Assembly (NCBI GenBank): GCA_040389185.1 | Contig: JAZKAJ010000011.1 | Location: 1,033-65,032 of the forward strand | Length of the DNA: 64,000 nt | Source of the DNA: Patescibacteria group bacterium | GTDB taxonomy: Bacteria > Patescibacteriota > Minisyncoccia > Phycocordibacterales > CAIRYW01 | Reading direction: 5' to 3' | Part shown: in pieces, positions 11,070-60,847 of the stretch | Position numbering within the stretch: position 1 is the stretch's first letter | Layout: every line of letters begins with the position of its first letter | Notes under the pieces: generated by a model | Database searches by the model: none | Seen by the model: only the letters and a program-made list of their open reading frames with translations | Told to the model about the DNA's origin: nothing | Position numbers and translations under genes: made by a program

Positions 11070-11264
11070 TCATCCAGTTGGACCGCGAGTACGCTTATCG
11101 AACCTTACAGGTTCAGTACACCTTTTGGTGATTTTGTTTCGTTCCTCACAAAATCAGCTCAAAAGGTTTTCGATTCCAACACGCAAGTGCCCCACACTTG
11201 CTTGGACGCACAAAAATACAAAAACCTCAGACGTTGGACGTCTGAGGTTTTTGTATTTTTGTGC
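11070..11264 (+). repeat. tRNA 3'-half mimic structured element, type-2 copy D (partner tRNA-Lys), ending in a 26-bp perfect hairpin/terminator
   Basis: The conserved block gttggaccgcgagtacgcttatcgaaccttacaggttcagtacaccttttgg is shared with 52770-52823 in the opposite orientation. ggttttcgattccaac matches the tRNA-Lys T-arm and ttggacgcac matches the tRNA-Lys acceptor 3' strand. The hairpin gcacaaaaatacaaaaacctcagacg/cgtctgaggtttttgtatttttgtgc spans 11208-11264. Confidence 0.6.
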
Positions 11265-12183: not shown

Positions 12184-12344
12184 AAATGAGACAGTCTATG
12201 TGAGTAGTTTAAATCTGAGCTCGTAAAAATCATCTTATTTCATAAGATGATTTAATTGAATTGAACCTATAAATAAAAAATAATTTTACTTAGTTTGACT
12301 TTGATGTCGGAACAGCTAGTATTACCCCGGAAGCGCTCGAGTGA

Positions 12345-13721: not shown

Positions 13722-13742
13722 TGGAGTGCTCTGACGACAATG

Positions 13743-13777
13743 GGGAGGTGGTGCTTACGGGCCCACCTCCTTTTTTA
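13743..13777 (+). terminator. intrinsic terminator
   Basis: ggaggtgg-tgcttacgggc-ccacctcc followed by TTTTTT directly after the thrC-like stop. Confidence 0.6.
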
Positions 13778-14125
13778 TTTAAATTCCTTATCCGCAGTTC
13801 TAAACATAATAACCATCATTATAATAAATGCTACACCGATAGATATTGCAATTCCTTTTTCTGTAGAAGTTGAGACATCAAGTGCAAATTGAAATATAGC
13901 TATAATCATTTGAACGATAGCAAAGAATGCAATGACTTTTGAAAATTTTTTGTTTGATGCATCTAAATCAACCATTGTTTTGTTTGTCCTCAGTGTTGCC
14001 TTTATCTGAAGCTCATTCATCTTCATTTGTTGTTTAGAAAAAGCAATCCCTGTAGAAATTTCTCCAATAGAATCGAGTGCGTCTAATATATCTTTATCTT
14101 CGGGTAAATATTGTTCTTTTTTCAT
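13775..14125 (-). CDS. hypothetical small membrane protein
   Basis: 116-aa ORF with two C-terminal TM helices. Confidence 0.35.
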   Translation of the reverse strand: MKKEQYLPEDKDILDALDSIGEISTGIAFSKQQMKMNELQIKATLRTNKTMVDLDASNKKFSKVIAFFAIVQMIIAIFQFALDVSTSTEKGIAISIGVAFIIMMVIMFRTADKEFK

Positions 14126-14373
14126 AAATTATATTGTAACATTTTGAGCTTTTATGGAAAATTTCAATTTACTTTTTTCTGTCCATAAATACCCTTATTT
14201 CCCAACACATTTTCGTGTGGATAAATTTACGAGATTCCCACAAAACGCATTTTGAATATATTAGAATGATGTTAAGGAAGAGGAGTTGTGAAATTACAAG
14301 AGTGTTAGTTTAAAGAACATTCCTGTAACTTTAGAAGCCTTCCTACAAATTAATAGTTAGTAAAAATAAAAGA

Positions 14374-15720
14374 ATGAAAAAACTTGATGAAAAGTTGGTT
14401 GTTAAGTATGTCCAAATTTCTGAGATTAAGCCCTCAGAATATAATCCACGAAAGTGGGATGCGGAACAGAAGGAATCGCTTAAGCAAAGTCTTACTCAAT
14501 TCGGTATAGTTGATCCACTGGTTTGTAATAGTGCAGAAGGGAGAATGAATATTCTCCTTGGTGGTCACTTCAGATTGGAAGTGTTGAAGGAACTTGAATA
14601 TAAAGAAGTTCCAGTGGTTTACATCAATATCTCAGATATTGAAAAAGAGAAGGAACTCAATATCAGATTAAACAAGAATACGGGAGAATTCGATTTAGAT
14701 CTGTTGGCAGAATTTGATGAGGCACTCCTTTCTAATATTGGATTTGATTCAGAAGAACTCGATACCATCTTCAACAATGATGAGGACGAAGAGGAACAAT
14801 TTGATCTCAAGAAAGAACTAGAGAAACTTAATATCAATGAAATCAAAGTAAAGAAGGGTGACGTATATGAACTCGATGGATCAAGACTTATGTGTGGCGA
14901 CAGCACGATTGAAGAAGATATGCTTTCCCTTATGGGTGAGCATAAGGCAGACATGGTAATGACTGATCCGCCATATATTCTTGATTACCTGCATGGTAAG
15001 ACAAGGCACGGAGAAGCAACAGAAGGGTTTGGATCAAAGAAAAACAGAAGATATCTTGAGACAGATGTTTTGCCTGATAACTTCACAGAACTTTGGATGG
15101 GAAATATACAAAAAATACAGAAAGAAAACTTTCATATTGTTTGCTACGAGAACTGGAAGAATATTCGTACTATCTGGAACGAGATGGAGAAGCATTGGAA
15201 AGTCCGCAATATGATTGTCTGGCATCTTCCTAATCGTGTACAGGGATATTCAGGAAAGTACAAACTCTTTAACAAGTACGATATTGCCATGGTTGGTACG
15301 ACTGAAGACGAAGTGAATCTCAACACTGAAAAGGAGGATGAGATTGTTGATAACGAGTATGAGACAGCACTCTATGCAACATCAGGATCACCACATTGGG
15401 AAAGTTACGGAGCTGGTAAGAAGATTTGTCCAACTGATTTTATTGAGTTTAAAGCCGCGGATGAGAAATCTTCAGGACAAGGAATCATCTTCGGTACAAA
15501 ACCGCTTGAGATCCTTATGCCTTACATAAAGATACTAACAGAGAGGGATGATCTTGTAGTAGAGCCTTTTGGTGGAAGTGGGTCGACATTAATAGCATCC
15601 ATCAAAATGAAAAGAAGATGCTTTCTTATGGAGAAATCTCCAGTCTATGTTGAGGTAATCCTTCGAAGATGGAGAATACAGACTGGTAAGGAGCCGGTAA
15701 AAATTTATGAGAGAGCATAA
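14374..15720 (+). CDS. ParB-like nuclease domain fused to a beta-class N6-adenine/N4-cytosine DNA methyltransferase
   Basis: The N-terminal ParB/Srx-like region (VQISEIKPSEYNPRKWD...GGHFRLEVL) precedes catalytic motif IV DPPY, which in turn precedes SAM motif I FGGSGST. That order (IV before I) marks the beta class. Such fusions are typical of phage or island orphan methyltransferases. Confidence 0.8.
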   Translation: MKKLDEKLVVKYVQISEIKPSEYNPRKWDAEQKESLKQSLTQFGIVDPLVCNSAEGRMNILLGGHFRLEVLKELEYKEVPVVYINISDIEKEKELNIRLNKNTGEFDLDLLAEFDEALLSNIGFDSEELDTIFNNDEDEEEQFDLKKELEKLNINEIKVKKGDVYELDGSRLMCGDSTIEEDMLSLMGEHKADMVMTDPPYILDYLHGKTRHGEATEGFGSKKNRRYLETDVLPDNFTELWMGNIQKIQKENFHIVCYENWKNIRTIWNEMEKHWKVRNMIVWHLPNRVQGYSGKYKLFNKYDIAMVGTTEDEVNLNTEKEDEIVDNEYETALYATSGSPHWESYGAGKKICPTDFIEFKAADEKSSGQGIIFGTKPLEILMPYIKILTERDDLVVEPFGGSGSTLIASIKMKRRCFLMEKSPVYVEVILRRWRIQTGKEPVKIYERA

Positions 15721-16096
15721 AGAAGATAAGATAAGATTTCTTGAGGAACTGCAGAAGATAGGAAATGTATGGACTGCGTGTGGAAGAATTAAGATTCCAA
15801 GATCGACAATATATCGTTGGTTAAAGACTGATCCAGAATTTAATGAATTGGCCCGAAAAGCAATGAAAATCGGTCGAATCAGCCTAAGTGAAATGACAGA
15901 GGGTGTAGTAATTAAGAAAGCTATTGTAGAAAAAGATTTGAAAGCTTCAATGTATATTCTGAGCCACAATCATCCTAGGTATATAAAACGAGAGCCACTG
16001 CCACCTAAAGATGAAAATCAGGCAATGAATTTGGCTGATCTAATTAAGAAGAGTATAAAAAAGGATGGAACGAATGAGGATTCTTTCGGACTGTGA
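15707..16096 (+). CDS. HTH-domain protein (phage terminase small-subunit-like or regulator)
   Basis: 129 aa; helix-turn-helix IPRSTIYRWLKTDPEF; overlaps the methyltransferase stop by 14 nt (translational coupling). Confidence 0.35.
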   Translation: MREHKEDKIRFLEELQKIGNVWTACGRIKIPRSTIYRWLKTDPEFNELARKAMKIGRISLSEMTEGVVIKKAIVEKDLKASMYILSHNHPRYIKREPLPPKDENQAMNLADLIKKSIKKDGTNEDSFGL

Positions 16097-16158
16097 TTAA
16101 TTACAGATCTTTATTTAAAAGAACCAGTAGTTCATACTACTGGTTCTTTTAAATAAAT

Positions 16159-16806
16159 TTACTTCACTATCGAACATCCATTCACAAGCACATTACCAAG
16201 CTTTCCAGAGAGCTCACCTTTAAGAGTTAATCGATCTCCCTTGGATACTGTTGCCAATTGAGTCTCATCAGCTTTTGAGAACATACACTGAACATTCTCA
16301 AAAGAATACTGGCTTCCGTCGGTAAGTGAAATGTATGGAGTATCAACAATGTCTTTGCCAATGGTATCAACAAGGCCTGACACTTCGACAATATTGTTCT
16401 TGTACTTTGCATCAGCAGAAACTTCATTTGCTTTGTAGTCAGCAAGAAGTTTTGTTGCTGTTACTTTGATTGCTGGTTGTTCTGGTACTGGCACAGACAC
16501 ACTTTTATCTGTTACTACTGACGGCATAACATTACTTGATGAAGTTGTACCTATTATCACAAAGAGTACTAAGACAAGAAAGACTTTCAATCCTCGAGAA
16601 AGATTGATATGTAATTTCTCCTTTATTAATTTGTTACTCGGTGGCAATACAATGATTGCGATAAGGAGAAACAAAATTCCTGAGAGAGGCTTAGTAAAAA
16701 TTGTACTTACTGCTGTAAGTAACATGACTACACCAAATACCCAAGAGAATACAGAACCTAGAGTTATGTTTTTAGTCTTAACTGAAGACTGGTTGTTGTT
16801 TTCCAT
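16159..16806 (-). CDS. membrane-anchored OB-fold protein (tRNA_anti-like / BOF-type domain)
   Basis: 215 aa; N-terminal TM, then YKANEVSADAKYKNNIVEVSGLVD...GDRLTLKGELSG typical of OB-fold anticodon-binding-like domains. Confidence 0.4.
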   Translation of the reverse strand: MENNNQSSVKTKNITLGSVFSWVFGVVMLLTAVSTIFTKPLSGILFLLIAIIVLPPSNKLIKEKLHINLSRGLKVFLVLVLFVIIGTTSSSNVMPSVVTDKSVSVPVPEQPAIKVTATKLLADYKANEVSADAKYKNNIVEVSGLVDTIGKDIVDTPYISLTDGSQYSFENVQCMFSKADETQLATVSKGDRLTLKGELSGKLGNVLVNGCSIVK

Positions 16807-17070
16807 TGTAGCGAGTTTTTATAACATGACAGGTAGACAAAAAGCCCTCCGCCATGGCGATGGTCCGAAGACCACCCACATCCGTTTCCAGATATGACTC
16901 GCTACAAGTACCCTGACGAAGGGTTTTTTATCTTGTAGCGAGCTTTTCGACCATATCCTTTAAAACTTTTAAGGGTTTCAAAGGGGTTAGGTCTCTTATT
17001 AAGTTGTACTAAACAATAATACCAAGATTATAGGTATTAGTCAGTACCTTAGCTCGGATTAGGAATTTTA

Positions 17071-17091
17071 GGTAATCGAGTTACCAACAGC
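17071..17091. promoter_or_regulatory. candidate recombinase half-site GGTAA-tcgag-TTACCAACAG (shares an 11-mer with 18505-18515)
   Basis: gttaccaacag at 17080-17090 is identical to 18505-18515; small inverted repeat ggtaa/ttacc. Confidence 0.3.
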
Positions 17092-17478
17092 TTAGAATTG
17101 TGCTTTTTGACCCCAATTACCATCATCCCAGGCGGGTTTATCCGTTCCTGTGATATGAAATTCTCCATCATCCATCATTTCGCCGTAATAGACAGTGCCT
17201 GGTAGCCAGGCGGTTTCTCCAAGAAATTCTGATATAGCTTCTCCAGACTTCTGATAAACATAATTTATAATATTGTCTCCAGAATAATCACGAACATGAG
17301 TGTAAGGCATTACAGGGTTTGGAATTCCCATAAGAAAAAGGGTTGTCTTTTCTTTACCTGTCACTTCTTTTAATTCTGATCGTAGAAGAAACCGCAATCC
17401 TGTTCCAAGATACTCACCAGTACTCAACATATAACTTTTACTTGCAGTTTTAATTTCTGTTTCTTTATTCTCACTCAT
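17092..17478 (-). CDS. hypothetical protein
   Basis: 128-aa ORF; no recognisable motif. Confidence 0.35.
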   Translation of the reverse strand: MSENKETEIKTASKSYMLSTGEYLGTGLRFLLRSELKEVTGKEKTTLFLMGIPNPVMPYTHVRDYSGDNIINYVYQKSGEAISEFLGETAWLPGTVYYGEMMDDGEFHITGTDKPAWDDGNWGQKAQF

Positions 17479-17516
17479 TGTTTAATGATATTTAATATCG
17501 GTTAAATTGATAATGG

Positions 17517-17894
17517 TTATTTTTTAAGCTTCAATATCTGTGCCCAGCCTTTCTCATGAATGTCCTTTGCAAGAATAACTAATCGTCCCGCAAAAAAAGC
17601 AACACCCATACCCAAGACAGATAAACAAAGACCCGAAGCGAATGGATTTGTAAGTAAATTTGATAGACGTGGGTCAAGTTTTTCTAATCCACCATAAGCA
17701 GCAATCAGGGCGATTCCCCAGAATGCACTAAATCCTATATATTCGAATTCACTAAGTTTTTTATCCAAGTTTACTGTTTTCCTGTAAGACCACACAGTTA
17801 TAAAACCTGTGAAGATAATATAGAAGTAAACATATGCGTCATCTGTTGGATTCATATTTTTTAATTTTCTAATAATTATGACCCGTTCCTCCAA
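17517..17894 (-). CDS. hypothetical membrane protein
   Basis: 125 aa, three hydrophobic helices. Confidence 0.35.
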   Translation of the reverse strand: MEERVIIIRKLKNMNPTDDAYVYFYIIFTGFITVWSYRKTVNLDKKLSEFEYIGFSAFWGIALIAAYGGLEKLDPRLSNLLTNPFASGLCLSVLGMGVAFFAGRLVILAKDIHEKGWAQILKLKK

Positions 17895-17918
17895 ATTAAG
17901 GAGGAACGGGTTCTGTCA

Positions 17919-18203
17919 CTATCTCGCTGGAACTAAATCACCACACCAAGCTGTATATTGTAAGACAAGAATATTTGATGTCTTACCTGTACTGTTGGAT
18001 GACGTCTTTGCAAGAATGTGGACCTGCTGACAAGTTGCTGTAGTGTTTAGGGTGTATTCGGCAGTCGGAAGACTGTATCGAGCACCGTTACCTGCAGTGA
18101 TTGTCTTAACGAATCCTGCACGCTGCATTGCAGTATGAAGGATGTTATAATCGTTAGGATAGATAGCGTTGTGCAATTCTACTCTGATAAAGTATGAATT
18201 CAT
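17919..18203 (-). CDS. hypothetical small protein
   Basis: 94 aa (FIRVELHNAIYPNDYNILHTAMQRAGF...); first gene of a three-gene minus-strand block. Confidence 0.35.
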   Translation of the reverse strand: MNSYFIRVELHNAIYPNDYNILHTAMQRAGFVKTITAGNGARYSLPTAEYTLNTTATCQQVHILAKTSSNSTGKTSNILVLQYTAWCGDLVPAR

Positions 18204-18241
18204 TTTGTTTTCTAAGATTGGTTAATAAAATCGACCGTTAA

Positions 18242-18275
18242 CAAAAAGCGATGACCCCTCGGTCATCGCTTTTTG
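18242..18275. terminator. bidirectional intrinsic terminator
   Basis: aagcgatgacc-cctc-ggtcatcgctt flanked by AAAAA and TTTTT. Confidence 0.55.
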
Positions 18276-18483
18276 TATGGAATTTTTTTAGAGTAAATAA
18301 CTACTTATGATTCTATAATTTTAGTGATGATCGAAGGCTGTGAAGTTTGTTGTTTTGTTATGTTATGTTTTTTGCCTTCGAGATTGATGTCTCGTACGAA
18401 TATTGATCTATGTAGTTTTCAATGAACTTAACGATAATATATCACTATTTTTTATTTGCACAAACCGGGTAAAGTTTATATCC

Positions 18484-18515
18484 CTGTTGGTAAATTGGGG
18501 ATAAGTTACCAACAG
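18484..18515. promoter_or_regulatory. 32-bp imperfect palindrome CTGTTGGTAA-N12-GTTACCAACAG, candidate serine-recombinase site
   Basis: Perfect 10-bp inverted arms; lies about 30 nt upstream of the recombinase ORF; 11-mer shared with 17080-17090. Confidence 0.45.
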
Positions 18516-18541
18516 TCCAACCTGGACTCTCAAGAGGGGTT

Positions 18542-19879
18542 GTGTCATTCATTGAGTATATGAGTAGCGCAACAAATGCACCATTAGGAACAACAGCTAA
18601 AATAGTAATACCTGTAAAGGTGAAATACTGTCTTTACGCTAGAAAAAGCACAGAATCGGAAGAAGCTCAGATTCTTTCGATTGATAGCCAAATAAGGGAA
18701 ATGCAACAAATGGCAGACAGGGAGTGTTTGGAGATAGTTGAAATAAAGAGAGAATCACACTCCGCCAAAGAAGCAGGACAACGACCTGTGTTTAATGAGA
18801 TTGTAGAAGAAATTAAACTTGGAAAATTTAATGGAATTCTGACTTGGGCGGCAGATAGAATAAGTCGTAATGCGGGGGATCTTGGAAGAATTGTAGATCT
18901 AATGGATGCTGAGAAGCTTCATGATATTAGAACCTATAGCCAAAGATTCACCAACAATCCCAATGAGAAATTTCTTCTTATGATTCTTGGCTCACAAGCA
19001 AAGCTTGAGAATGACAATAAGGTGTTGAATGTAAAAAGAGGACTTAAAGCACGGTGTGAGATGGGACTCTGGCCTTGTGTACCGCCGACTGGATATTTAA
19101 GAAACAAGAATGTTGATAATAAATGTTTACCTGAAATAGATTCATATAGAGGAGCAATAATTAAGAAATGTTTTGAAAAAATAGCTTATGAAAAATGGTC
19201 AGGTAGAAAAGTATATAAATGGTTAAGAGACGAAGTAAACTTTAAAACAAAGACAGGTAAAATATATACTTTGAGCAATCTATATCTTACGTTACGGAAT
19301 CACTTCTATTACGGCACTTTTGAATATCCAAAAGACAGCGGTCATTGGTATACAGGTAAACATACACCCCTCATAACCAAAGAGTTGTTTGATAAGGTAC
19401 AGGAAGGAATAAGTAATTACAATGATCGAAACGAACACAAGGAATTCGCTTTTACAAAGATAATGTCTTGCGGACTGTGTGGATCTGGGATTACTGCTGA
19501 TGAGAAATTTAAGAAACTGGCGAATGGCAGTGTTCAGAGATATGTGTATTATGGTTGCACAAGATTTAATGATCGTGATTGTAAATCAGGATGGATCAAT
19601 GAAGTTGATCTTATAGAACAATTAGCTAATCTAATGGGCAATATTGATCTCGATGAAATTGGCATGAAGGAAAAGATAAAAGAAGAAATAGAACGACATA
19701 AGAAGTTTAGTTTGGGGCTACTAGGCGAAAAAGCTAAAGTAATTAAGACAACTGATATTGATATTCGAAATTATGCCAAATATGTTCTCCGCGACGGTGC
19801 CTCATGGGAGAAAAGAGAGTTATTGGGATGCTTAAGAAGTAAGATTTCCCTAAATGCAAAAAAGATAGAGATTCACTAA
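18542..19879 (+). CDS. large serine recombinase (resolvase catalytic domain plus recombinase domain plus zinc ribbon)
   Basis: Catalytic-serine motif CLYARKSTESEE; GDLGRIVDLMD and LLMILGSQAKLENDN regions; C-terminal Cys cluster CGLCGSG...YYGC. The true start is probably the ATG at 18560. Confidence 0.85.
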   Translation: MSFIEYMSSATNAPLGTTAKIVIPVKVKYCLYARKSTESEEAQILSIDSQIREMQQMADRECLEIVEIKRESHSAKEAGQRPVFNEIVEEIKLGKFNGILTWAADRISRNAGDLGRIVDLMDAEKLHDIRTYSQRFTNNPNEKFLLMILGSQAKLENDNKVLNVKRGLKARCEMGLWPCVPPTGYLRNKNVDNKCLPEIDSYRGAIIKKCFEKIAYEKWSGRKVYKWLRDEVNFKTKTGKIYTLSNLYLTLRNHFYYGTFEYPKDSGHWYTGKHTPLITKELFDKVQEGISNYNDRNEHKEFAFTKIMSCGLCGSGITADEKFKKLANGSVQRYVYYGCTRFNDRDCKSGWINEVDLIEQLANLMGNIDLDEIGMKEKIKEEIERHKKFSLGLLGEKAKVIKTTDIDIRNYAKYVLRDGASWEKRELLGCLRSKISLNAKKIEIH

Positions 19880-19888
19880 GCCGGTAAG

Positions 19889-20128
19889 CTATTCCATTGC
19901 ATTCTTTTTGATTCTATACCATTCTCTTACATCAAGTTGTAAATAATCTTTACAGTCCAAAAGAATTTTAGATAACTCTTTATGTCTATACATATCTTCT
20001 AGCGGTGGCGCTGGTCGAATATCTCGTCGAATATTGGAATCCCTATCATAAACTTGAAACGCATAATTTATTGTGGTATCAATTTTTTTATACTCTTCAT
20101 AAAGCTTTAAGTATTCTTTTTCTTCCAT
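19889..20128 (-). CDS. hypothetical small protein (third gene of the nuclease operon)
   Basis: 79 aa; 17-nt gap from the upstream gene on the same strand. Confidence 0.4.
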   Translation of the reverse strand: MEEKEYLKLYEEYKKIDTTINYAFQVYDRDSNIRRDIRPAPPLEDMYRHKELSKILLDCKDYLQLDVREWYRIKKNAME

Positions 20129-20145
20129 GCAATTTATGTTATTGA

Positions 20146-20463
20146 TTATTTAATCGAATAAGCGAACTGAAGCATGCCGTTTGTTTGCGGATAAAAATCA
20201 AATAAAGTCTCAAAATTATCTTGATTTTCAGATGTCTGGAATTTGACATACTTTAAATTGGTCTTTTCTTCAAACCACTTTTTTAAAACTTCATCAACCT
20301 TTATATCTTTTGTTTGCTTCTTGAAGAGTCTGGATAGAAATACTATGTCAGCACAAACAATAATTTTACATAAAATACTACCATTATCGTCTTCAATAAA
20401 ACTCCTTTGCCAAAAAACATCAGCATGCCAATCCTCTTTAATATTTCCTAGAATTAATTTCAC
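20146..20463 (-). CDS. hypothetical small protein (second gene of the nuclease operon)
   Basis: 105 aa; its start overlaps the upstream gene's stop by 4 nt (ATGA), implying translational coupling. Confidence 0.4.
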   Translation of the reverse strand: MKLILGNIKEDWHADVFWQRSFIEDDNGSILCKIIVCADIVFLSRLFKKQTKDIKVDEVLKKWFEEKTNLKYVKFQTSENQDNFETLFDFYPQTNGMLQFAYSIK

Positions 20464-21683
20464 AGTTTTGATCTTAAATTTTTAAGGTTTTCGAGTAATT
20501 CATCATAGAGAATGAAGTTTATATTTTTCAATGATGATCCAAGCTTCCTGAAATCAGCTGACTCTTTTTTATTTTTGAACTGCTTGCTTGTACCAGCAAT
20601 AATATATCCTCGCGGTCTTACCACCTGTATATCAATACCTTTTTTATTTTTTACAGCACGAATATATGCGTCAGAATTATGAACGATCTCATCAGTGTAA
20701 TTTTCTATTTGAGCAATAGCCATTGAAACATCCGGCTTCCAATAATAATTATCATGATCTTTATCAAAACTAAGCAATGAAACATCATGTTTCTTTATTT
20801 CAAAAACATCAACAAATCCATATACATCCACTAATACGAAGTCGGGGTAGCTAACACTAATACTTACATTTTGTTTTTCAATTGCAGTGACATAATTGGC
20901 CATAAATCGAAACACCTTTTCACTAAGAAATTTTTGCCAATCATTTTCGGAAATGCTTTTTTTAGCCAAATTTGCCTCAAACTCTTTAATAACTTCATCA
21001 AGATAAATTCTATCTGTAGTAGTTTTAGCGCTTTTAATTAGTGTAGCGCGCCCATTTTTTATTCCTCGTTTTTTACCTTTAAGAGAACCTTCAAATATTT
21101 TCGGGAAGAAGTTATTAAGCGACTCAAGATCCTCCTCATTTAGCCTTTGAGCTACTTTCTTACGTCGTAAGAGAGCAGCAATCTCACCTGCCTTATACTC
21201 ATCAAAATCGTCAGTAGAAATCTTTATGTCTTTTGGAAACTTAGTACTTAAAAAAGATGCTACAGCACTTCGTAACTCATTATTACTGTCTTCGTTAATA
21301 CGACCAAGTTTAATAAGAAGATTTTTTATGTCTAAAAGCGGCAGAACAACAGAAACCTTATGCTTTCCTTTATGAACCTTCTTTGTCTTCTTGGAAACAA
21401 TAAGTTCAAGAACTTTGGATCCCGCTAAATGCTCCTTCAGAGCAGTAAGGAGGAAAATTCCTTTTTTTCCAAAACCATAACCTTTTTTATTAAGATAAAG
21501 TCCTGAAGGAAGACCTTGATAACCTTCGAGAGTAATACTTGATACTTGTTTTGATTTTGCAGGTTGTAAATAGTAGATGGTCTTATCTGATTTAGGATAT
21601 ACCTCATATACACAAAAGTCAGGTTTATCAGACGCATAATGACGTTCTGGAATTTCAATCTTTTTATCTTTTTTTGCAACCAT
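20460..21683 (-). CDS. PD-(D/E)xK nuclease-domain protein, Shedu (DUF4263)-like or RecB/Cas4-like C-terminal domain, lysine-rich N-terminal region
   Basis: 407 aa. The C-terminal region shows the ordered motifs YPDFVLVD, then DVFEIKK ((D/E)xK), then AIAQIENY (QxxxY), as in RecB-family and Shedu-type nucleases. The N-terminal 280 aa are K-rich with no recognised domain. The Shedu assignment is made from motifs only. Confidence 0.5.
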   Translation of the reverse strand: MVAKKDKKIEIPERHYASDKPDFCVYEVYPKSDKTIYYLQPAKSKQVSSITLEGYQGLPSGLYLNKKGYGFGKKGIFLLTALKEHLAGSKVLELIVSKKTKKVHKGKHKVSVVLPLLDIKNLLIKLGRINEDSNNELRSAVASFLSTKFPKDIKISTDDFDEYKAGEIAALLRRKKVAQRLNEEDLESLNNFFPKIFEGSLKGKKRGIKNGRATLIKSAKTTTDRIYLDEVIKEFEANLAKKSISENDWQKFLSEKVFRFMANYVTAIEKQNVSISVSYPDFVLVDVYGFVDVFEIKKHDVSLLSFDKDHDNYYWKPDVSMAIAQIENYTDEIVHNSDAYIRAVKNKKGIDIQVVRPRGYIIAGTSKQFKNKKESADFRKLGSSLKNINFILYDELLENLKNLRSKL

Positions 21684-21790
21684 ATATAAGCTACTTTATA
21701 CCATAAAAATAGCCCAATTTCATTGGTTAAAATAACTTAAACTATAGACTATGTTGGACTTGACCCAACTTAGTAGGTCTCACATGTGGG

Positions 21791-21863
21791 TGCGTCCAGT
21801 TGGAATCGAACCAACGACCGTCTCCTTAAAAGGGAGCTGCTCTACCGACTGAGCTATGGACGC
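21791..21863 (-). tRNA. tRNA-Lys (anticodon UUU)
   Basis: Cloverleaf: acceptor GCGTCCA/TGGACGC; D-arm GCTC-AGTCGGTA-GAGC; anticodon loop CTTTTAA; T-arm GTTGG-TTCGATT-CCAAC. CCA is not encoded. Confidence 0.85.
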
Positions 21864-21924
21864 AATACGTGAAAATATATCAGAAAATCAGAAAAAGTCC
21901 ACTTTCACGAGTGAGTAGTTCTTA

Positions 21925-22931: not shown

Positions 22932-23408
22932 ATGAAGGCTCGCAAGGTAATTATTATTTTGGATAATATCAGAAGCAACCATAATGTAGGCTCTATTTTC
23001 CGTACCGCAGATGCTCTCGGTGTATCCAAAATTTATCTTTGTGGGACAACACCGAAACCAATAGATAGGTTTGAAAGACCTGTAGGGGAAATAGCCAAGA
23101 CTGCGCTCGGAGCGGAGAAGAGTATTTCTTGGGAGTATGCAAAAACTACTCTGGGTGTAATAAAAAGATTGAAAAAGAATGGAACAGAGATTATTGCGAT
23201 TGAGCAATTTGATAATTCAGTCGATTATAAAAAAGTAAAACCAAAAGAAGATGTTGCATTCGTACTCGGCAATGAAGTAGACGGAGTAAACAAAAACATT
23301 TTAAAACTTTGTGATGTTGTGGCAGAGATTCCAATGAAAGGAGGGAAGGAGTCTTTGAATGTTGCTGTCGCATGTGGTACTGCATTATTTCGCATACTAA
23401 ATTATTAA
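22932..23408 (+). CDS. SpoU/TrmH-family RNA 2'-O-methyltransferase
   Basis: VIIILDNIRSNHNVGSIFRTADALG, then FVLGNEVDGV and ESLNVAVACG (SPOUT knot motifs). Confidence 0.75.
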   Translation: MKARKVIIILDNIRSNHNVGSIFRTADALGVSKIYLCGTTPKPIDRFERPVGEIAKTALGAEKSISWEYAKTTLGVIKRLKKNGTEIIAIEQFDNSVDYKKVKPKEDVAFVLGNEVDGVNKNILKLCDVVAEIPMKGGKESLNVAVACGTALFRILNY

Positions 23409-23451
23409 AAATAAATAACAATCTCACGATCGTGAGATTGTTATTTATTTT
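23408..23451. terminator. 44-bp perfect palindrome (bidirectional terminator-like), copy 1
   Basis: aaaataaataacaatctcac-gatc-gtgagattgttatttatttt; near-identical second copy at 23954-23995. Confidence 0.6.
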
Positions 23452-23472: not shown

Positions 23473-23958
23473 ATGTCACTCATACTTGATATATTGGAGG
23501 AGTTGTCGAATGTGGAAATACGTTACAAAGGAGGTGTTGGGATCAATCTTTTTGGTATGCCGAGATTCGAGTCTCAAAATAAACAGTCTTTGAAATCTAG
23601 TTTTTATAGATTAAGTCGGGGTGGTTATATTGAAAAAGAGGCTAGCGGATGGAGGTTAACGGAAACCGGTAAAAAATATTTAAAATCTGACCATTCAAAC
23701 TATAAGACTTTTTCATCACCTTTTAAAAAAGAAAGTCCTAAAAATCTTATTGTAATATTCGATATACCAGAAGAGCGCAGGTCAGAAAGAGACTGGTTTA
23801 GAAGTCATCTAAGAAGATTTGATTATTTGATGATTCAAAGGAGTGTGTGGGTAGGGCCCTCTCCGTTGCCGAAGGAATTTCAGGACTATCTTAAGAAGTT
23901 AAAATTAAAATCCTGCTTAAAGACCTTTAAACTTTCTAAAAGTTATAAGGCTAAATAA
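23473..23958 (+). CDS. winged-helix domain protein with a C-terminal Cas2-like motif
   Basis: 161 aa. N-terminal wHTH-like region (YRLSRGGYIEKEASGWRLTETGKKYL). C-terminal LIVIFDIPEERRSERDWFRSHLRRFDYLMIQRSVWVG resembles the Cas2/PaaX-C core (beta1 xDIP...RR...L...G..RIQ.SVW). Confidence 0.35.
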   Translation: MSLILDILEELSNVEIRYKGGVGINLFGMPRFESQNKQSLKSSFYRLSRGGYIEKEASGWRLTETGKKYLKSDHSNYKTFSSPFKKESPKNLIVIFDIPEERRSERDWFRSHLRRFDYLMIQRSVWVGPSPLPKEFQDYLKKLKLKSCLKTFKLSKSYKAK

Positions 23959-23995
23959 AATAACAACTTCACGATCGTGAAGTTGTTATTTTATT
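23954..23995. terminator. 42-bp perfect palindrome, copy 2
   Basis: aataaaataacaacttcac-gatc-gtgaagttgttattttatt; same tcacgatcgtga core as copy 1, with arm substitutions that preserve pairing. Confidence 0.6.
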
Positions 23996-28775: not shown

Positions 28776-28826
28776 GGACAGGAAACTATAGTTGATATTA
28801 TTAGAATGCTGTGCTATATTGGTCAA

Positions 28827-29090
28827 ATGCCAATTACATCATCAGCAAAAAAAGCACAGAGAGCTTCTAAAAAGAAGGCGGTATATAATATTCGCCGAAA
28901 AAAGGGGGTTGATACTGTTGTTCACGAGATTAAGAAACTAATCAAAGCTAACAAAAAGGAAGAGGCAACAAAACTTCTCCCAAAGGCATACCAAGCGTAT
29001 GATAAGGCTGCGAAAGCAAATACTCTAAGTTCGAACACAGCATCAAGAAAGAAAAGCAGACTATCAAAGTTTATAAAAAACTCAAAGTAA
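28827..29090 (+). CDS. rpsT: 30S ribosomal protein S20
   Basis: MPITSSAKKAQRASKKKAVYNIRRKK...KAYQAYDKAAKANTLSSNTASRKKSRLSKF; basic and alpha-helical as in S20. The longest ORF starts at 28806. Confidence 0.75.
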   Translation: MPITSSAKKAQRASKKKAVYNIRRKKGVDTVVHEIKKLIKANKKEEATKLLPKAYQAYDKAAKANTLSSNTASRKKSRLSKFIKNSK

Positions 29091-29091
29091 G

Positions 29092-29126
29092 AAAAACAAA
29101 ACCCGCGAAAGCGGGTTTTGTTTTTG
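29092..29126 (+). terminator. intrinsic terminator
   Basis: aaaacccgc-gaaa-gcgggtttt followed by gttttt. Confidence 0.6.
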
Positions 29127-29153
29127 TGTGACATGTGATAATTTGATGTCAGC

Positions 29154-29225
29154 CCCTTTGTCGTTCAATGGATAGGACACATCCTTGCGAAGGATGTGAT
29201 AGAGGTTCGATTCCTCTCGAAGGGA
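29154..29225 (+). tRNA. tRNA-Arg (anticodon GCG as read; unusual)
   Basis: Acceptor CCCTTTG/CGAAGGG (one G-U pair); D-arm GTTC-AATGGATA-GGAC; anticodon arm CATCC-TTGCGAA-GGATG; T-arm AGAGG-TTCGATT-CCTCT. Confidence 0.7.
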
Positions 29226-29446
29226 TACAATTAAAAAAAACGTACCGGTTCGTACGTTTTTTTTAATTGTATCCCTTCGAAAAAGTGCTGAACGCACTTT
29301 TGTAGAGGAATCGAACGCCGGAATATATTTTTCGGAGTTGAGAAAAATACGAGGTGGTGACCAGACAAATTCTGCAGGTAGCAGAATTTAGTCGAGGTCG
29401 ATACTCCTCTAGTAGAGGAATCGGGGTACTGAACCTGTAAGAATCG
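29226..29446 (-). repeat. tRNA 3'-half mimic structured element, type-1 copy C (partner tRNA-Arg-GCG), minus-strand sense
   Basis: A 29-bp perfect hairpin (29217-29280) embeds the tRNA 3' end. Read on the minus strand, the element carries sense copies of the T-arm (ggcgttcgattcctct) and the acceptor 3' strand (cgaagggata). The small hairpin aagtgcgttcagcactt lies between those two copies. The type-1 core is cgactaaattctgc-tacct-gcagaatttgtctggtcacca. A partial type-2 block lies at 29422-29446. Confidence 0.6.
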
Positions 29447-29479
29447 ATATTTCATTTTTATTTTTGCTATAATATCTAG

Positions 29480-46040: not shown

Positions 46041-46266
46041 TGGGTGAGGCGAGAGTTTCGACCTCGACTAAATTTTTCTACCCGAAAAATTTGTCTGGTC
46101 ACCAGCTCACACCGCCGATGAGCTCATCGGCGACTACGCTTCGCTTCGTGTGTTCCGCTGTTCGAATCTCGCCTGTTTTTCGGAGAAAAACCAAGTTGCT
46201 TCGCAACTTGCCTCCGCCAATAAGAAAAAACACCTGCATCTGCACGGTGTTTTTTCTTATTGGCGG
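46041..46266 (+). repeat. tRNA 3'-half mimic structured element, type-1 copy A (partner tRNA-Ser)
   Basis: Its 5' end tgggtgaggcgagagtttcgac is antisense-like to the tRNA-Ser 3' end. The core is cgactaaatttttc-taccc-gaaaaatttgtctggtcaccagctcac, followed by the perfect hairpin cgccgatgagctcatcggcg. Sense T-arm/acceptor copy ccgctgttcgaatctcgcc and acceptor end cctccgcca follow. A 21-bp perfect hairpin closes the element at 46214-46266. Confidence 0.6.
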
Positions 46267-46534
46267 GCCACTGGAGTTAAGTGATAGAGGACTCAAGTGT
46301 CATAAGGATATTCTAGGATTTTTACAGAGAATATTCGAGGCACTTGAGTCTAAGGTGGACTTTCTATAAAATGAGACAACTGAGACAGTTTTGAGAGGTT
46401 TGAAATACGCGCATTGTAAAATTGAAAATTCGTGGTATTGTTTTCGCGTTAGTCTAACCGTTCGACAGTATCTAAAGAACTGTCTCATGGTAAGACAGTT
46501 CTTCGATATCTAACGAATCAACCTCTCGTAACCT

Positions 46535-47038
46535 ATGAAAACACCGATTACCGCCGGCCGCGTCTTTTCGCAGCTCTCTTATACAACCATCATCAAAGTC
46601 ATTGCTGCACTTACTGTGATGCACAATTCTGAGAAAGAGTGCAGGGGTGGAATCCTTGCTATTCTGGTGCAAGGACCAGAAGGAAGCACCCTCGAATCTC
46701 GCGAACTCGGAGCCCCGGGAGAAAAGGCATTTGATTCTGCCTATTTCGCCCACGAAAAAATCCGTCGCCTCGCCACTCGTCGCCTGACTGCGGGAAGCGA
46801 AGGGGAATATGCATCTTCGCAAAGTGCAGATCCTGAGAAGGGTCAGTACGGCGGCTGCGTCGTGTCGTGGCACGGGAAGTATGAAATCTTTATCTCATTC
46901 TCGGGAGCACCCGCTGTCGTGGATGAGGTCGTCACTTATGTCGTCGCTGAAGCCCTCGGGTTCACGGTTTCGACTGAGTATCAGAACGATCTTCTTCCGC
47001 AAGCTCGCGCACTACTCGAGCGTTGTCGCAGGCCATGA
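46535..47038 (+). CDS. hypothetical protein in a second high-GC segment
   Basis: 167-aa ORF; visibly high GC; preceded by (T)GAGACAG motifs at 46372-46392 and 46485-46505. Confidence 0.4.
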   Translation: MKTPITAGRVFSQLSYTTIIKVIAALTVMHNSEKECRGGILAILVQGPEGSTLESRELGAPGEKAFDSAYFAHEKIRRLATRRLTAGSEGEYASSQSADPEKGQYGGCVVSWHGKYEIFISFSGAPAVVDEVVTYVVAEALGFTVSTEYQNDLLPQARALLERCRRP

Positions 47039-47107
47039 AATAAGGCAAGTGTCGTTGATATCCCACGTGGAGTCCTGAGCAATCGGGACTCCATTTTTAT
47101 TTTTTTA

Positions 47108-47431: not shown

Positions 47432-47435
47432 AGGG

Positions 47436-48467
47436 TTATTTTACCACTCTTTTAGATCTTAAGGGTTTGAGTTCAGGGAACAAGTTCAAGTTAAAAATTT
47501 TATTCAATAATAGATTCCTTGTTATTTCATCCATTTTAAGCATGAGACTTAATAATGCTACTGAATTCTCGCGCCACTCCTCACTCGTCCTTGACCAGTC
47601 CCAAACAATCTCTCCTTCATCCTGGATGATGTTTGATGATTTTGGAATCAGTGCCTCGTGCACGGTTTTGTGTCTTATTTTTTGCCTTATTTCCCAAATT
47701 ACTTTTAAGTATTCTTCTACCCGTTCAGTATCTTTGATTATTTCTGAAAGGCGATGCTCGATCCACTCCTTTGATGTTGTTTTACTATGAGAATGAATTT
47801 TTCCATGAACACTACATTCAACTATTCCAGGACATTTAGGTGCTGTTCCTATTATTGATTCCGTTATAGAGAATAGAACCAAGATGCGCAGAAAGGATGA
47901 ATTTCTAATAGTTCTTTCGGTGGTAATCCTTGTATTTTCTTTACTATTAAAATAAGCCTTAATTAAGGATTTGTTTTCTCTAGACTGGTCTAGATATTTT
48001 TTATATAAATCCGCGTATCTTAAAATATGTGGGTAATTATTTGGGAAATATATTTTATTTGATATGTCAGAATAATCTAAAAGATAATTACACTCACCTT
48101 CGGGTATCATCTTATCCGTATCAAAATTTGTACTTTCGTACCATTCCAGAGAAATATAATCATTAAAAATTATGTTATGAAATATTACCCATTCGTTGAT
48201 TGTGTTTTGACTACATTCACTAAATTCAATATTCATTGAGTCCCAATACATCGTCCCAAATCCAACCTCTATCTTAACTCGGGTTGCGGGAGAGATTGTT
48301 AACCCGTTAATAGTAACTTCTTTGTTTGGGGCATGTTGAGTTGGTAGTGTAAATTTCACGAGTCTAATTATATATCTACATATATAATTGTCGATAAATG
48401 AGGAGGCGAGAGTTTCGATCGTTACACGATCAGTACCCCGATTGGATAATTTGTTTCGATACCTCAC
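47436..48467 (-). CDS. hypothetical protein with C-terminal Rx4H (HEPN-like) motif
   Basis: 343 aa with IRQKIRHKTVHEA near the C-terminus. The 5' end of the longest ORF overlaps repeat element E (48400-48467), so the true start may be downstream. Confidence 0.35.
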   Translation of the reverse strand: MRYRNKLSNRGTDRVTIETLASSFIDNYICRYIIRLVKFTLPTQHAPNKEVTINGLTISPATRVKIEVGFGTMYWDSMNIEFSECSQNTINEWVIFHNIIFNDYISLEWYESTNFDTDKMIPEGECNYLLDYSDISNKIYFPNNYPHILRYADLYKKYLDQSRENKSLIKAYFNSKENTRITTERTIRNSSFLRILVLFSITESIIGTAPKCPGIVECSVHGKIHSHSKTTSKEWIEHRLSEIIKDTERVEEYLKVIWEIRQKIRHKTVHEALIPKSSNIIQDEGEIVWDWSRTSEEWRENSVALLSLMLKMDEITRNLLLNKIFNLNLFPELKPLRSKRVVK

Positions 48468-48573
48468 ACATTATGCTCAATCGGGCTTCGAATCTCGCAA
48501 GCAGTGCGCCCCGGCACTGCACTCCTCCGCCCAACAAAAAAGGCGCCCATATAAGGCGCTCTTGTTTTGTATT
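48400..48573 (+). repeat. tRNA 3'-half mimic element, degenerate type-1 copy E, abutting the tRNA-Ser 3' end
   Basis: gaggaggcgagagtttcga is antisense-like to the tRNA-Ser 3' end. Also present: aatttgtttcgatacctcac (core-like), the T-arm copy gggcttcgaatctcgc, the hairpin gcagtgcgccccggcactgc and the acceptor copy ctcctccgccca. A long inverted repeat with the real tRNA end spans 48510-48590 and encloses the ggcgcc-catataa-ggcgc terminator. Confidence 0.5.
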
Positions 48574-48661
48574 GGGCGGAGGAGGCGAGATTCGAACTCG
48601 CGGTACCTTGCGGCACTCCTGTTTTCAAGACAGGTGCACTAAACCACTATGCGACTCCTCC
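48574..48661 (-). tRNA. tRNA-Ser (anticodon UGA), type II with long variable arm
   Basis: Acceptor GGAGGAG/CTCCTCC; 3-bp D-stem with large D-loop; anticodon arm CCTGT-CTTGAAA-ACAGG; variable arm GTGCC-GCAA-GGTAC; T-arm GCGAG-TTCGAAT-CTCGC. Confidence 0.8.
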
Positions 48662-48721
48662 AATATTTGGCTATGTTAGCAGAAAAAGCTGGAATTCACA
48701 AATTGGGGTATACTATTCTAT

Positions 48722-52497: not shown

Positions 52498-52569
52498 GCC
52501 CCTGTAGTTAAATGGATATAACTGCGGACTTCTAAGCCGTTATTCGAGGTTCGATTCCTCGCGGGGGCA
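52498..52569 (+). tRNA. tRNA-Arg (anticodon UCU) with an A31/G39 mismatch at the base of the anticodon stem
   Basis: Acceptor GCCCCTG/CGGGGGC; D-arm GTTA-AATGGATA-TAAC; anticodon arm GCGGA-CTTCTAA-GCCGT; T-arm CGAGG-TTCGATT-CCTCG. Confidence 0.6.
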
Positions 52570-52682
52570 CAAAGATAAACAAAAAGCCCTATCGTTTTTC
52601 AACAATAAGGCTCTTATAAATTTGGATTACGATTTACAAAATCTAATCCATAGAATCAAATATCTGAGATTTTTTATATGTT

Positions 52683-52830
52683 ATGCCCCCGAGCAAGCCT
52701 GGGATGGCTTGCGTCCAGGAATCGAAAACCTTTTGAGTATAATTTATGATTTTAAGAAATAAATTATCCAAAAGGTGTACTGATCCTGTAAGGATCGATA
52801 AGCGTACTCGCGGTCCAACCGGGAGCACTG
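52683..52830 (-). repeat. tRNA 3'-half mimic element, type-2 copy F (partner tRNA-Arg-UCU), minus-strand sense
   Basis: Block 52770-52823 is near-identical to the reverse complement of 11074-11127. Read on the minus strand, the element carries ctcaaaaggttttcgattcc, then the hairpin gcaagcc-atc-ccaggcttgc, then tcgggggca. That last segment matches the Arg-UCU acceptor 3' strand. Confidence 0.55.
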
Positions 52831-60584: not shown

Positions 60585-60784
60585 TATACAGGAGTCTCTC
60601 CTTCGACTAAATTTTGCTACCCGCAAAATTTGTCTAGGCACCAGCTCACTTGTTTTGAAAGCTTTCAAAACATAGCTCCGCTGTTCGAGTCCTAACGAAA
60701 GTGCGTTTAGCACTTTCTTATCGCCCACAAAAATACAAAAACACCAGATATTATCTGGTGTTTTTGTATTTTTGTGGGCGATAC
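60585..60784 (+). repeat. tRNA 3'-half mimic structured element, type-1 copy B (partner tRNA-Val), ending in a 31-bp perfect hairpin that includes the tRNA-Val 3' end
   Basis: Its 5' end tatacaggagtc is antisense-like to the tRNA-Val T-arm. The core is cgactaaattttgc-taccc-gcaaaatttgtctaggcaccagctcac, followed by the hairpin tgttttgaaagctttcaaaaca. Sense T-arm copy ccgctgttcgagtcct and the hairpin aagtgcgtttagcactt follow, then the acceptor copy atcgccca. The palindrome 60720-60782 contains the A-rich run cacaaaaatacaaaaac. Confidence 0.65.
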
Positions 60785-60847
60785 AGGACTCGAACCTGTG
60801 ACCATCCGAGTGTAAATCGGGCGCTCTACCAACTGAGCTAATCGCCC
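60775..60847 (-). tRNA. tRNA-Val (anticodon UAC)
   Basis: Acceptor GGGCGAT/ATCGCCC; D-arm GCTC-AGTTGGTA-GAGC; anticodon loop TTTACAC; T-arm ACAGG-TTCGAGT-CCTGT. Confidence 0.85.

Follow-up and report, generated by a model that had tools for sequence, protein, structure and literature searches.

Perfect terminator palindromes lengthened by inverted copies of tRNA 3' ends accompany an apparently undescribed family of small structured DNA elements in Patescibacteria

Bidirectional Rho-independent terminators between convergent genes carry a GC-rich stem between an A-tract and a T-tract, providing a hairpin and a U-run on both strands at a site between two 3' ends. The 3' ends of transfer RNA (tRNA) genes are also entered by phages, integrative and conjugative elements and islands, as well as by derivatives lacking open reading frames (ORFs) that resemble cis-mobilizable elements (CIMEs) or miniature inverted-repeat transposable elements (MITEs), with the tRNA end being regenerated and a direct repeat displaced. 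For recombination through folded single-stranded sites, as between integron attC and attI or between CTX-phi attP(+) and dif, the expected product has the order target copy, hairpin, inverted copy, element and target copy. Here, we analysed a stretch of 64,000 nucleotides from a Patescibacteria group bacterium (the window), in which the 3' end of tRNA-Arg(GCG) is embedded in a long perfect palindrome and followed by a unit that we call element B. As far as sequence can tell, it is settled that bidirectional terminators form the core of such tRNA-linked palindromes and that an inverted copy of the tRNA end accounts for their extra length. This copy belongs to an apparently undescribed family of small, structured, gene-less DNA elements (120-230 bp, free of ORFs) beside Patescibacteria tRNA genes. 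We see about an even chance that the family consists of small, non-autonomous modules inserted into tRNA 3' ends, each restoring the end of the tRNA gene and adding a terminator.

Palindromes were collected across the 64-kb window by a repeat finder and by a separate hairpin scan (perfect stem of at least 14 bp, loop of at most 12), and tRNA genes were called by ARAGORN and Rfam, which detected only five tRNAs:

29154..29225, + strand: tRNA-Arg(GCG), with T-loop 29206-29212, T-stem 3' strand 29213-29217, acceptor 3' strand 29218-29224 and discriminator A 29225
60774..60847, - strand: tRNA-Val(TAC)
48573..48662, - strand: tRNA-Ser(TGA)
52498..52570, + strand: tRNA-Arg(TCT)
21787..21864, - strand: tRNA-Lys(TTT), positions 54-73 identical to the copy in element D

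The window contained 11 perfect stems of at least 14 bp, and none appeared in any of 20 first-order Markov shuffles. The tRNA-linked palindromes (all strandless) are:

29217-29245 / 29252-29280: perfect, 29 bp, loop 6, at tRNA-Arg(GCG); 29217..29280 reads acceptor 3' strand, TACAATT, A8, CGTAC, loop CGGTTC, then the mirror image
60719-60750 / 60752-60783: perfect, 32 bp, loop 1, at tRNA-Val; 60719..60783 reads T65, acceptor 3' strand, discriminator, CAAAAATACAAAAA, CACCAGATA, then the mirror image
11208-11234 / 11238-11264: perfect, 27 bp, behind element D; the right arm ends ..TTTTTGTGC at 11264, the start point of a 10.5 kb island
46214-46234 / 46246-46266: perfect, 21 bp, terminator behind element A; the right arm ends ..TTGGCGG at 46266, the start point of a 2.1 kb insertion
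48522-48541 / 48565-48584: imperfect inverted repeat, 20 nt at 90%, at tRNA-Ser; 48522..48584 is made of acceptor 3' strand, GCCCAA and an A-tract around a GC hairpin terminator

Long perfect palindromes, reported by a first-pass annotation of the same DNA, were thus recovered by both searches. Its 29-bp stem at tRNA-Arg(GCG) and its 21-bp stem behind element A (46214-46266) were found as described; the stems at tRNA-Val and behind element D are perfect as it had claimed, the latter being self-contained, with lengths of 32 rather than 31 bp and 27 rather than 26 bp. The long inverted repeat that it had assigned to tRNA-Ser does include the acceptor 3' strand and was recovered as the 20-nt repeat given above. 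The run that it had noted as shared is the 17-mer CACAAAAATACAAAAAC, which the repeat finder found common to the palindromes at 11208 and 60719. The ARAGORN and Rfam coordinates place the acceptor 3' strand and discriminator inside one arm at tRNA-Arg(GCG), tRNA-Val and tRNA-Ser. The arm at tRNA-Ser stops at position 66, and the other two extend one base deeper, position 65 being added by a chance pairing of T65 with a conserved A.

Seven of the 11 stems are unrelated to tRNAs:

2985-3029, strandless: perfect palindrome, 22 bp
16110-16157, strandless: perfect palindrome, 22 bp
23408-23451, strandless: perfect palindrome, 22 bp
23954-23995, strandless: perfect palindrome, 21 bp
18241-18276, strandless: perfect palindrome, 16 bp
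49563-49597, strandless: perfect palindrome, 16 bp
29092-29125, strandless: perfect palindrome, 15 bp, behind rpsT

Six of them lie directly 3' of a gene end, three of these six between convergent genes. In all seven, the centre is GC-rich and the outer part of the arms is A-rich on the 5' side and T-rich on the 3' side, with loops of 0-1 nt in some. Among the four longest, two have a fully paired centre. Judged by this layout, they are bidirectional intrinsic terminators, perfectly symmetric in this genome; the one behind rpsT is kept across relatives with the orthologous rpsT region. Given that these seven stems have no relation to tRNAs, long perfect palindromes represent a genome-wide terminator style, and the exact symmetry of ordinary terminators points to a pressure or process that keeps symmetry genome-wide. 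All five tRNA-linked palindromes likewise combine a GC-rich centre with an A-rich segment in the 5' arm and a T-rich one in the 3' arm, and they sit at tRNA 3' ends as the others sit at ORF ends, that is, at the ends of transcription units. Their arms gain 8-10 bp because the acceptor 3' strand and discriminator recur, in reverse complement, at the start of the far side. The proposal that long palindromes are a property of tRNA ends therefore stands for the special stems of 27-32 bp only. Since each palindrome core is an ordinary A-tract/GC-stem/T-tract bidirectional terminator as found at non-tRNA gene ends, the long palindromes away from tRNAs that had been named as refuting the proposal are in part present in the window.

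The inverted copy does not end with the palindrome. Beyond it lies a conserved hairpin of about 20 nt, after which the mirror image resumes and takes in the T-stem 3' strand and then the T-loop. The analysis covered about 25 units, with an element motif serving to pick the first 13 loci and only ten tRNAs coming from unbiased orthologous loci; loci outside the window carry L numbers, with L021-L024 being rpsT regions recovered from four relatives via rpsT homologues. Exact string matching in 13 units from 8 loci gave the order neighbour tRNA positions 54-65, A-C-hairpin-T, positions 66-73 and terminator A-tract, with A-C-hairpin-T splitting the copy at 65/66 in every unit. Even the odd T-loop TGCAAAT of a tRNA-Met is copied in its unit. 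The sequence reproduced is that of the tRNA 3' strand, in reverse complement, and not that of the 5' strand: at acceptor-stem G.U pairs the copy follows the 3' strand, both for tRNA-Arg(GCG) (CCCTTCG, not CCCTTTG) and for tRNA-Met (GCGGAG, not GCGGGG). Mismatches to the tRNA occur in the T-stem 3' strand in 6 of 13 units and in the acceptor strand plus discriminator (position 73) in 2 of 13. This contrast is consistent with a junction or discontinuity at 65/66.

Parts of the units recur with different tRNAs. The L009 unit carries T-stem 3' and acceptor segments CCAAC/TGGACGCA as in the tRNA-Lys of the window, whereas the tRNA-Lys of L009 itself has CCTAC/TGGGCGCA. The inserted hairpin CGAAAGTGCGTTTAGCACTTTC was found with Val in the window and with Arg-GCG in L022, and the A-tract CACAAAAATACAAAAA with Lys in three genomes and with Val in the window. 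The first-pass suggestion of recent templated copying of the tRNA end is thus retained insofar as a second inverted copy of that end gives the extra length. It fails as a local one-off event, as the copy runs past the palindrome to the T-loop and belongs to a conserved element family.

A unit lies beside four of the five window tRNAs, and the fifth (Lys) matches element D, with the 10.5 kb island between them; tRNA-Lys(TTT) was probably the original convergent partner of D. Elements A and D represent the same phenomenon as the tRNA-linked palindromes, as had been proposed. The units of the window are:

29272..29412, - strand: element B, type-1 core; 5' copy CTAGAGGAGTATCGACC 29396-29412, core 29317-29395, T-loop and T-stem 3' copy 29303-29316, hairpin 29281-29302, acceptor 3' and discriminator copy 29272-29280
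29413..29448, - strand: older type-2 unit, truncated; Pb hairpin, loop TTACA, then GATTCCTCTA
60585..60727, + strand: element C, type-1 core; 5' copy 60585-60601, T-loop and T-stem 3' copy 60683-60695, hairpin 60696-60717, acceptor copy 60718-60727
48400..48534, + strand: element E, type-2 core; 5' copy GAGGAGGCGAGAG 48400-48412, Pb hairpin 48417-48431, T-loop and T-stem 3' copy 48486-48499, hairpin 48500-48521, acceptor copy 48522-48534
52684..52823, - strand: element F, type-2 core; acceptor copy 52684-52692, hairpin 52693-52713, T-loop and T-stem 3' copy 52714-52728, Pb 52782-52796, Pa 52802-52811, 5' end 52812-52823
46042..46219, + strand: element A, type-1 core, tRNA-Ser-like ends; 5' copy 46042-46055, T-loop and T-stem 3' copy 46160-46173, two hairpins 46175-46210, acceptor-like CCTCCGCCA 46211-46219
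11074..11210, + strand: element D, type-2 core, tRNA-Lys-like ends; 5' copy 11074-11084, Pa 11085-11094, Pb 11100-11114, T-loop and T-stem 3' copy 11167-11181, hairpin 11182-11201, acceptor copy TTGGACGCA 11202-11210

The truncated type-2 unit meets element B at the palindromic junction TCCTCTA-C-TAGAGGA. Elements C and D each start 8 nt past an ORF stop (ORF 59903-60577, same strand, for C; ORF 10476-11066 for D). Element F adjoins the stop of a same-strand TrmB-like ORF (52836-53609) and lies 114 nt from the end of tRNA-Arg(TCT) without a shared palindrome. Between F and this tRNA, a strand-specific terminator (52577-52611, - strand) has two pairs that read G.U on the minus strand and would read C.A on the plus strand, and transcription from the TrmB-like gene through F therefore probably stops there.

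At least three multi-hairpin core types exist. The type-1 motif (TCGACTAAATT..CTACCY..AATTTGTCTGG.CACC) matched the window three times and the type-2 hairpin (ATCGA..CTTACAGG..CAGTAC) four times, against an expectation of 0-0.6, and whole units folded with z-scores of -6.7 to -13. In an alignment of ten type-1 cores, 14 of the 28 consensus pairs showed compensatory two-sided changes, although these, like the mismatch counts, are dependent events because the genomes are related. Each unit starts with a short segment complementary to its own T-stem 3' copy, often reaching into the complement of the acceptor strand, and the two segments covary across tRNA identities (GTTGG/CCAAC, CTTGG/CCAAG, GTAGG/CCTAC, GGGGG/CCCCC and GCGAGA/TCTCGC). 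The helices are almost wholly Watson-Crick. The non-canonical pairs of the type-1 core, read on the element strand, comprise 10 A.C versus 3 G.T, and the A.C excess would therefore become wobble pairs if the tRNA-sense strand folds; three more mismatches between copies (L002, C and L009) point in the same tRNA-sense direction, and the element strand is rich in C and poor in G. Folding energy was rejected as a guide to the strand, for the lower values of the tRNA-sense strand in 12 of 13 units are a base-composition effect and shuffle z-scores do not part the strands. We lean toward the tRNA-sense strand as the one that folds, a choice that is unsettled.

Searches for known RNA classes were negative. 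Rfam 15 covariance models, run on the window, element A and L009, found no family for the elements at or near gathering score, giving only spurious microRNA and leader matches on the terminator hairpin. ARAGORN and the Rfam models for tRNA and transfer-messenger RNA (tmRNA) detected the five true tRNAs only, and E-value-mode scans of A and L009 gave nothing relevant, by which a tmRNA or tRNA-like gene was rejected. Group I or II introns, T-box, HEARO/omega RNA and retron msr had no Rfam match even at E up to 5-10. The GTGCG starts are the complement of tRNA-Lys ends and nothing more. An archaeal origin with split or intron-bearing tRNAs was also discarded, because PolA, PilM and histidine kinases are encoded here and the homologues carry the names of Patescibacteria. 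In the literature, we found no account of such elements.

When a degenerate type-1 hairpin pattern was searched against 185,579 species genomes, it hit five contigs, all from metagenome-assembled genomes (MAGs) of Patescibacteria; two of the five are labelled Saccharibacteria, and no cross-phylum spread is claimed. Among metagenomes, it hit eight unlabelled contigs, six with the element and two by chance. So far, the family thus appears restricted to Patescibacteria. Carriage by phages or plasmids was rejected, as scans of IMG/VR gave no match or chance matches missing the hairpin. Beside tRNA-linked units at some loci, there is an extra conserved module (..GAAACCCACGGTTTC..TTCCTCCACGGGRAA..TTCCCGACC..), at 3390-3480 of L001 and 4340-4470 of L005, both Taylorbacteria loci, and at 600-690 of L006 and 4880-4960 of L010, both unlabelled metagenome contigs, in opposite orientation in L010. 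Downstream of the L005 unit, 4500-4600 (minus) resembles the 5' part of a tRNA-Leu/Ser-like gene (GGCAGTGGCGGAA..); ARAGORN called no tRNA at this place, where a tRNA gene may have been interrupted or have degenerated.

Read on the tRNA strand, every well-preserved locus has the order tRNA, terminator palindrome, mirror copy with hairpin, core and a second direct copy of the tRNA 3' end. Because this amounts to a short insert between direct repeats of the tRNA 3' end, we read the units as insertion modules. The direct repeats are clear in L023, L022, L003 and the A/E array of the window and partial, with the T-stem strand only, in C, D and F. At the four clear loci, the distal copy runs on into older sequence, showing that an old 3' end has been displaced. 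In L023 (10286-10325), 118 nt downstream of the present tRNA-Arg(GCG), ATTCCTCTCAAAAGTGATACAATAAAAAAAC runs into the rpsT terminator and matches the 3' end plus trailer of the window tRNA-Arg at 28 of 33 positions. In L022 (4325-4384), the distal GGTTCCACTGGACGCACC is followed by a decaying older palindrome and an older unit, and in L003 (242-289), AGGACTCCGCAACA is followed by an older terminator. In the window, joining the right arm of the A palindrome (..TTGGCGG, 46266) to the start of E (GAGGAGGCGAGAG, 48400) recreates the reverse complement of the tRNA-Ser 3' end with one base off (TTGGCGGGAGG versus TTGGGCGGAGG in the tRNA). Therefore, the 2.1 kb in between (46267-48399), which splits this old 3' end, represents a later insertion, and E entered between A and the tRNA. 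Unit-to-unit junctions in B, L009 and L023 look like deletions of an older palindrome.

Occupancy and unit type vary at orthologous loci. The site at tRNA-Arg(GCG) beside rpsT is empty in L024 and L021. It is occupied by a type-1 unit in the window, by a type-2 unit together with a palindrome of 50 nt in L022 and by a degenerate unit in L023. In the more distant relative L024, rpsT and the tRNA share a plain 16-bp terminator, which is the ancestral arrangement. At the tRNA-Lys site near polA, relatives carry one to three units of differing types. The tRNA-Arg(GCG) gene has opposite orientations relative to rpsT in different genomes (L021-L024 versus 28806-29450 of the window). In the closer relatives L029 and L030, no tRNA-Arg was found beside rpsT, although the L029 contig ends about 80 nt past the gene; with the nearest rpsT relatives P0053 and P0054 (94% and 86% identity), tRNA-Arg is not beside rpsT or the contig ends too early. 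This tRNA gene with its flanking module thus seems to be often rearranged. Synteny was sought via GNAT homologues as well, giving no conserved context, and rpsT homologues served instead.

On its own strand, an element starts with the T-stem 3' strand in reverse complement, which may or may not be joined by the acceptor strand, and continues with a core, a copy of positions 54-65, A-C plus the hairpin of about 20 nt plus T, a copy of positions 66-73 and a terminator. We infer from the patterns above that the modules are mobile, and propose the following course. Such a module would enter the 3' part of a tRNA gene, rebuild the tRNA end and supply a new terminator, shifting the old 3' end with its old terminator and any older units outward, so that repeated entry would yield arrays. 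Several observations weigh against this proposal. No integrase, transposase or reverse transcriptase adjoins any unit, the neighbouring ORFs being housekeeping genes, and the IMG/VR scans gave no free or viral copy. Only about ten tRNAs come from loci chosen without the motif, and core covariation would suit a functional RNA equally. Identical core, hairpin and A-tract variants pair with differing tRNA identities, and frequent retargeting, for which we have no mechanistic explanation, would therefore be needed. In C, D and F, no more than 0-3 acceptor bases accompany the T-stem strand in the distal copy, so that an old 3' end cannot be seen at every unit, and F is chimeric, with a Lys-type 5' end mismatched to its own 3' copy. 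In L023, the tRNA T-stem differs from relatives on both strands, which a simple crossover at 65/66 does not predict. Finally, the element-free L021 and the window share the first ~10 trailer bases (TACAA.TAAA), so that the palindrome arm may be ancestral in part instead of having arrived with a unit.

The insertion reading also has to do without proteins of the element's own. No unit contains an ORF, and the serine recombinase at 18542-19879 belongs to the separate 10.5 kb island; the ORFs beside A and D were considered as related integrases and rejected, being mutually dissimilar and without Pfam match. The units differ from MITEs in that their terminal inverted segments vary with the neighbouring tRNA, and no related insertion sequence was found. 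One way of moving would be as cassette-like modules in the form of single-stranded DNA, for example after natural transformation, with the long hairpin as a folded attachment site. Its arms would be formed by tRNA positions 54-73 and the terminator, the small hairpin would bulge out across from the crossover at 65/66, and the stem would imitate the 3' end of the targeted tRNA gene in its duplex form. Joining of the folded site to the tRNA gene by a host recombinase would then give the observed order and arrays downstream of tRNAs. All well-preserved units show the order target, hairpin, inverted copy, element and target. Because no recombinase, free form or single-stranded intermediate is in evidence, we consider this route unlikely. 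The first-pass idea of a cruciform recognised by a protein or nuclease is likewise no more than a possibility, which the sequence neither favours nor contradicts.

Two explanations would turn the units into RNAs. They could be convergent small structured RNA genes or 3' untranslated region modules, whose 5' and 3' tRNA-like segments form a closing helix and whose common hairpin terminates both transcripts, with the RNA imitating the acceptor/T-arm of the neighbour tRNA, perhaps for processing, stability or as a decoy. Core helices that covary and fold strongly argue for this, as do the covariation of the T-stem-like 5' strand with the unit's own T-stem 3' copy, a terminator at the end of every unit, the position of C, D and F directly behind same-strand ORF stops and the wobble-containing terminator of the F strand (52577-52611). 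However, no conserved promoter was found upstream, the acceptor 3' copy mostly lacks a pairing partner inside the element, and the C-rich, G-poor element strand with its A.C excess is the opposite of what a functional RNA strand usually shows. Since nested and truncated units, displaced old tRNA ends and variable occupancy are also left unexplained, we hold convergent RNAs to be possible but rather unlikely. The wobble bias and the excess of G over C would instead be accounted for by a tRNA-like RNA on the tRNA-sense strand, co-transcribed by read-through and processed like a tRNA. Its layout would be acceptor 5' strand, a small hairpin replacing the D and anticodon arms, T-stem 5' strand, a large core replacing the T-loop, T-stem 3' strand, acceptor 3' strand and discriminator, and the palindrome would arise because its acceptor 5' strand is complementary to the tRNA acceptor 3' strand. 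The conserved hairpin is indeed located where a tRNA body departs from the acceptor/T minihelix, full acceptor pairing is possible in L022, L003, L002, L013 and E, and a terminator lies behind the distal copy in L003 and L022. By contrast, a strong T-tract terminator separates the tRNA from the putative RNA, and a T-stem 5' strand followed by the complement of the T-loop (AATCGAA) identifies the unit as an inverted DNA copy, not a tandem duplicate of a tRNA. In C, D and F, the acceptor 3' segment is absent or degenerate, neither ARAGORN nor Rfam detects a tRNA or tmRNA at the units, and occupancy differs among relatives, all of which make an RNA of this kind quite improbable.

The remaining two explanations stay with DNA or with a guide. 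Quasi-palindromic terminators could have been perfected and extended into the tRNA end by intrastrand template switching at replication, the adjoining conserved sequences being unrelated repeats. That all terminators of the window are perfect palindromes, some with loops of 0-1 nt, suggests a perfecting process acting genome-wide, and the exact reverse complementarity of the copy to the tRNA 3' strand and the trailer start common to L021 and the window fit as well. Template switching is nevertheless very unlikely as the whole explanation: the mirror copy passes a conserved inserted hairpin to reach the T-loop and always lies beside a conserved core of one of a few kinds, other genomes show this architecture too, palindromes away from tRNAs stay out of flanking genes, and the L009 copy is unlike its neighbour tRNA. 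Least probable, with only a slight chance in our view, is a programmable guide RNA modelled on IS110 bridge RNAs or the homing guides of CRISPR-associated transposons (CAST), that is, a scaffold whose variable segments 54-65 and 66-73 flank the hairpin and which, with its complementary 5' segment, would steer a recombinase or nuclease encoded elsewhere to tRNA genes. Conserved core, hairpin and A-tract are interleaved with tRNA-specific segments that are swapped between near-identical units, as a guide would require, but the surroundings of the units contain no associated protein gene, the two variable segments run collinear with the tRNA and in its sense, which sets them apart from bridge-RNA guides, and neither Rfam nor the literature offers a match.

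Two larger inserts lie next to the units. The 10.5 kb island between element D and tRNA-Lys contains the following:

11265-21786: island
18542-19879: large serine recombinase
14374-15720: ParB-DNA methyltransferase fusion
20460-21683: Shedu SduA-like protein
17919-18203: GhoS-like protein
16159-16806: tRNA_anti-like protein
12345-13721: GC-rich pyridoxal phosphate (PLP) enzyme
16859-16993, - strand: LOOT RNA (Rfam RF03000, 76 bits)

Its junctions, TTTGTGC|CCCAAC (11264/5) and CATGTGGG|TGCGTCC (21786/7), point to the TGC in the acceptor end of tRNA-Lys as the insertion site and to TGGG-TGC-CCCA as an attP-like sequence. The LOOT RNA was considered as a relative of the tRNA-linked elements and rejected, as alignment shows an unrelated structure. 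The ORFs of the 2.1 kb insertion (46535-47038, +; 47108-47431, -; about 47436-48400, -) have no Pfam match. A 21-mer, AATGAGACAA(A/C)TGAGACAGTT, occurs at 11369-11389 and 46370-46390, about 100 nt inside the inserts behind D and A, against a chance expectation of 0, with more copies of TGAGACAGTT at 46478-46487 (-) and 12187-12196. It may be a common end or operator motif of two otherwise unrelated inserts.

If the units are indeed insertion modules, the tRNA genes of Patescibacteria host an unnoticed class of tiny, structured, protein-less mobile DNA that repairs its own target, supplies terminators and turns over fast. This would bear on DNA gain and loss in very small genomes, on tRNA-gene annotation, on assembly breaks in MAGs and possibly on new site-specific recombination chemistry. 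If they move as folded single-stranded cassettes, ultra-small bacteria would have a counterpart of integron cassettes or CTX-phi integration that targets tRNA genes, and if they are RNAs instead, they would constitute a new tRNA-mimicking family with one member per cognate tRNA. Perfectly symmetric palindromes as terminators throughout a genome are helpful for terminator prediction in uncultured lineages.

How the elements relate to described systems depends on which of their parts is compared. With bidirectional intrinsic terminators, they share the site between two 3' ends and the style also seen in the non-tRNA terminators of the window, but their arms reach 8-10 bp into the mature tRNA and continue in a mirror copy, giving perfect stems of 27-32 bp that are needless for termination. 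Correction of quasipalindromes by template switching likewise produces perfect palindromes by inverted copying of the flank of one arm, whereas it cannot alone yield a conserved inserted hairpin, continuation to the T-loop or conserved cores. The tRNA-like RNAs, such as the tRNA-like domain of tmRNA, YrlA/Y-RNA-like RNAs and acceptor-T minihelices, also combine a T-loop-like sequence, T-stem and acceptor strands, a discriminator and a large insertion in the tRNA body. By contrast, the acceptor/T identity of a unit follows its neighbour tRNA, its T-stem encloses the whole core, ARAGORN and Rfam are blind to it and its strand is uncertain. The attC and CTX-phi attP sites are alike in product order, in arrays growing at the target and in an asymmetric feature, here the 65/66 hairpin, opposite the putative crossover. 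However, the units have no IntI or Xer site consensus and no cassette ORFs and their target is a tRNA gene; the likeness is topological only. Like the tRNA-targeted integrative elements and their ORF-less derivatives, the units form inserts at tRNA 3' ends and tandem arrays with the newest unit at the tRNA, with occupancy varying between relatives. They differ in being only 120-230 bp long and free of an integrase, in carrying an extra inverted copy of the tRNA end split by a hairpin together with a covarying core, and in switching tRNA specificity on a near-constant scaffold.

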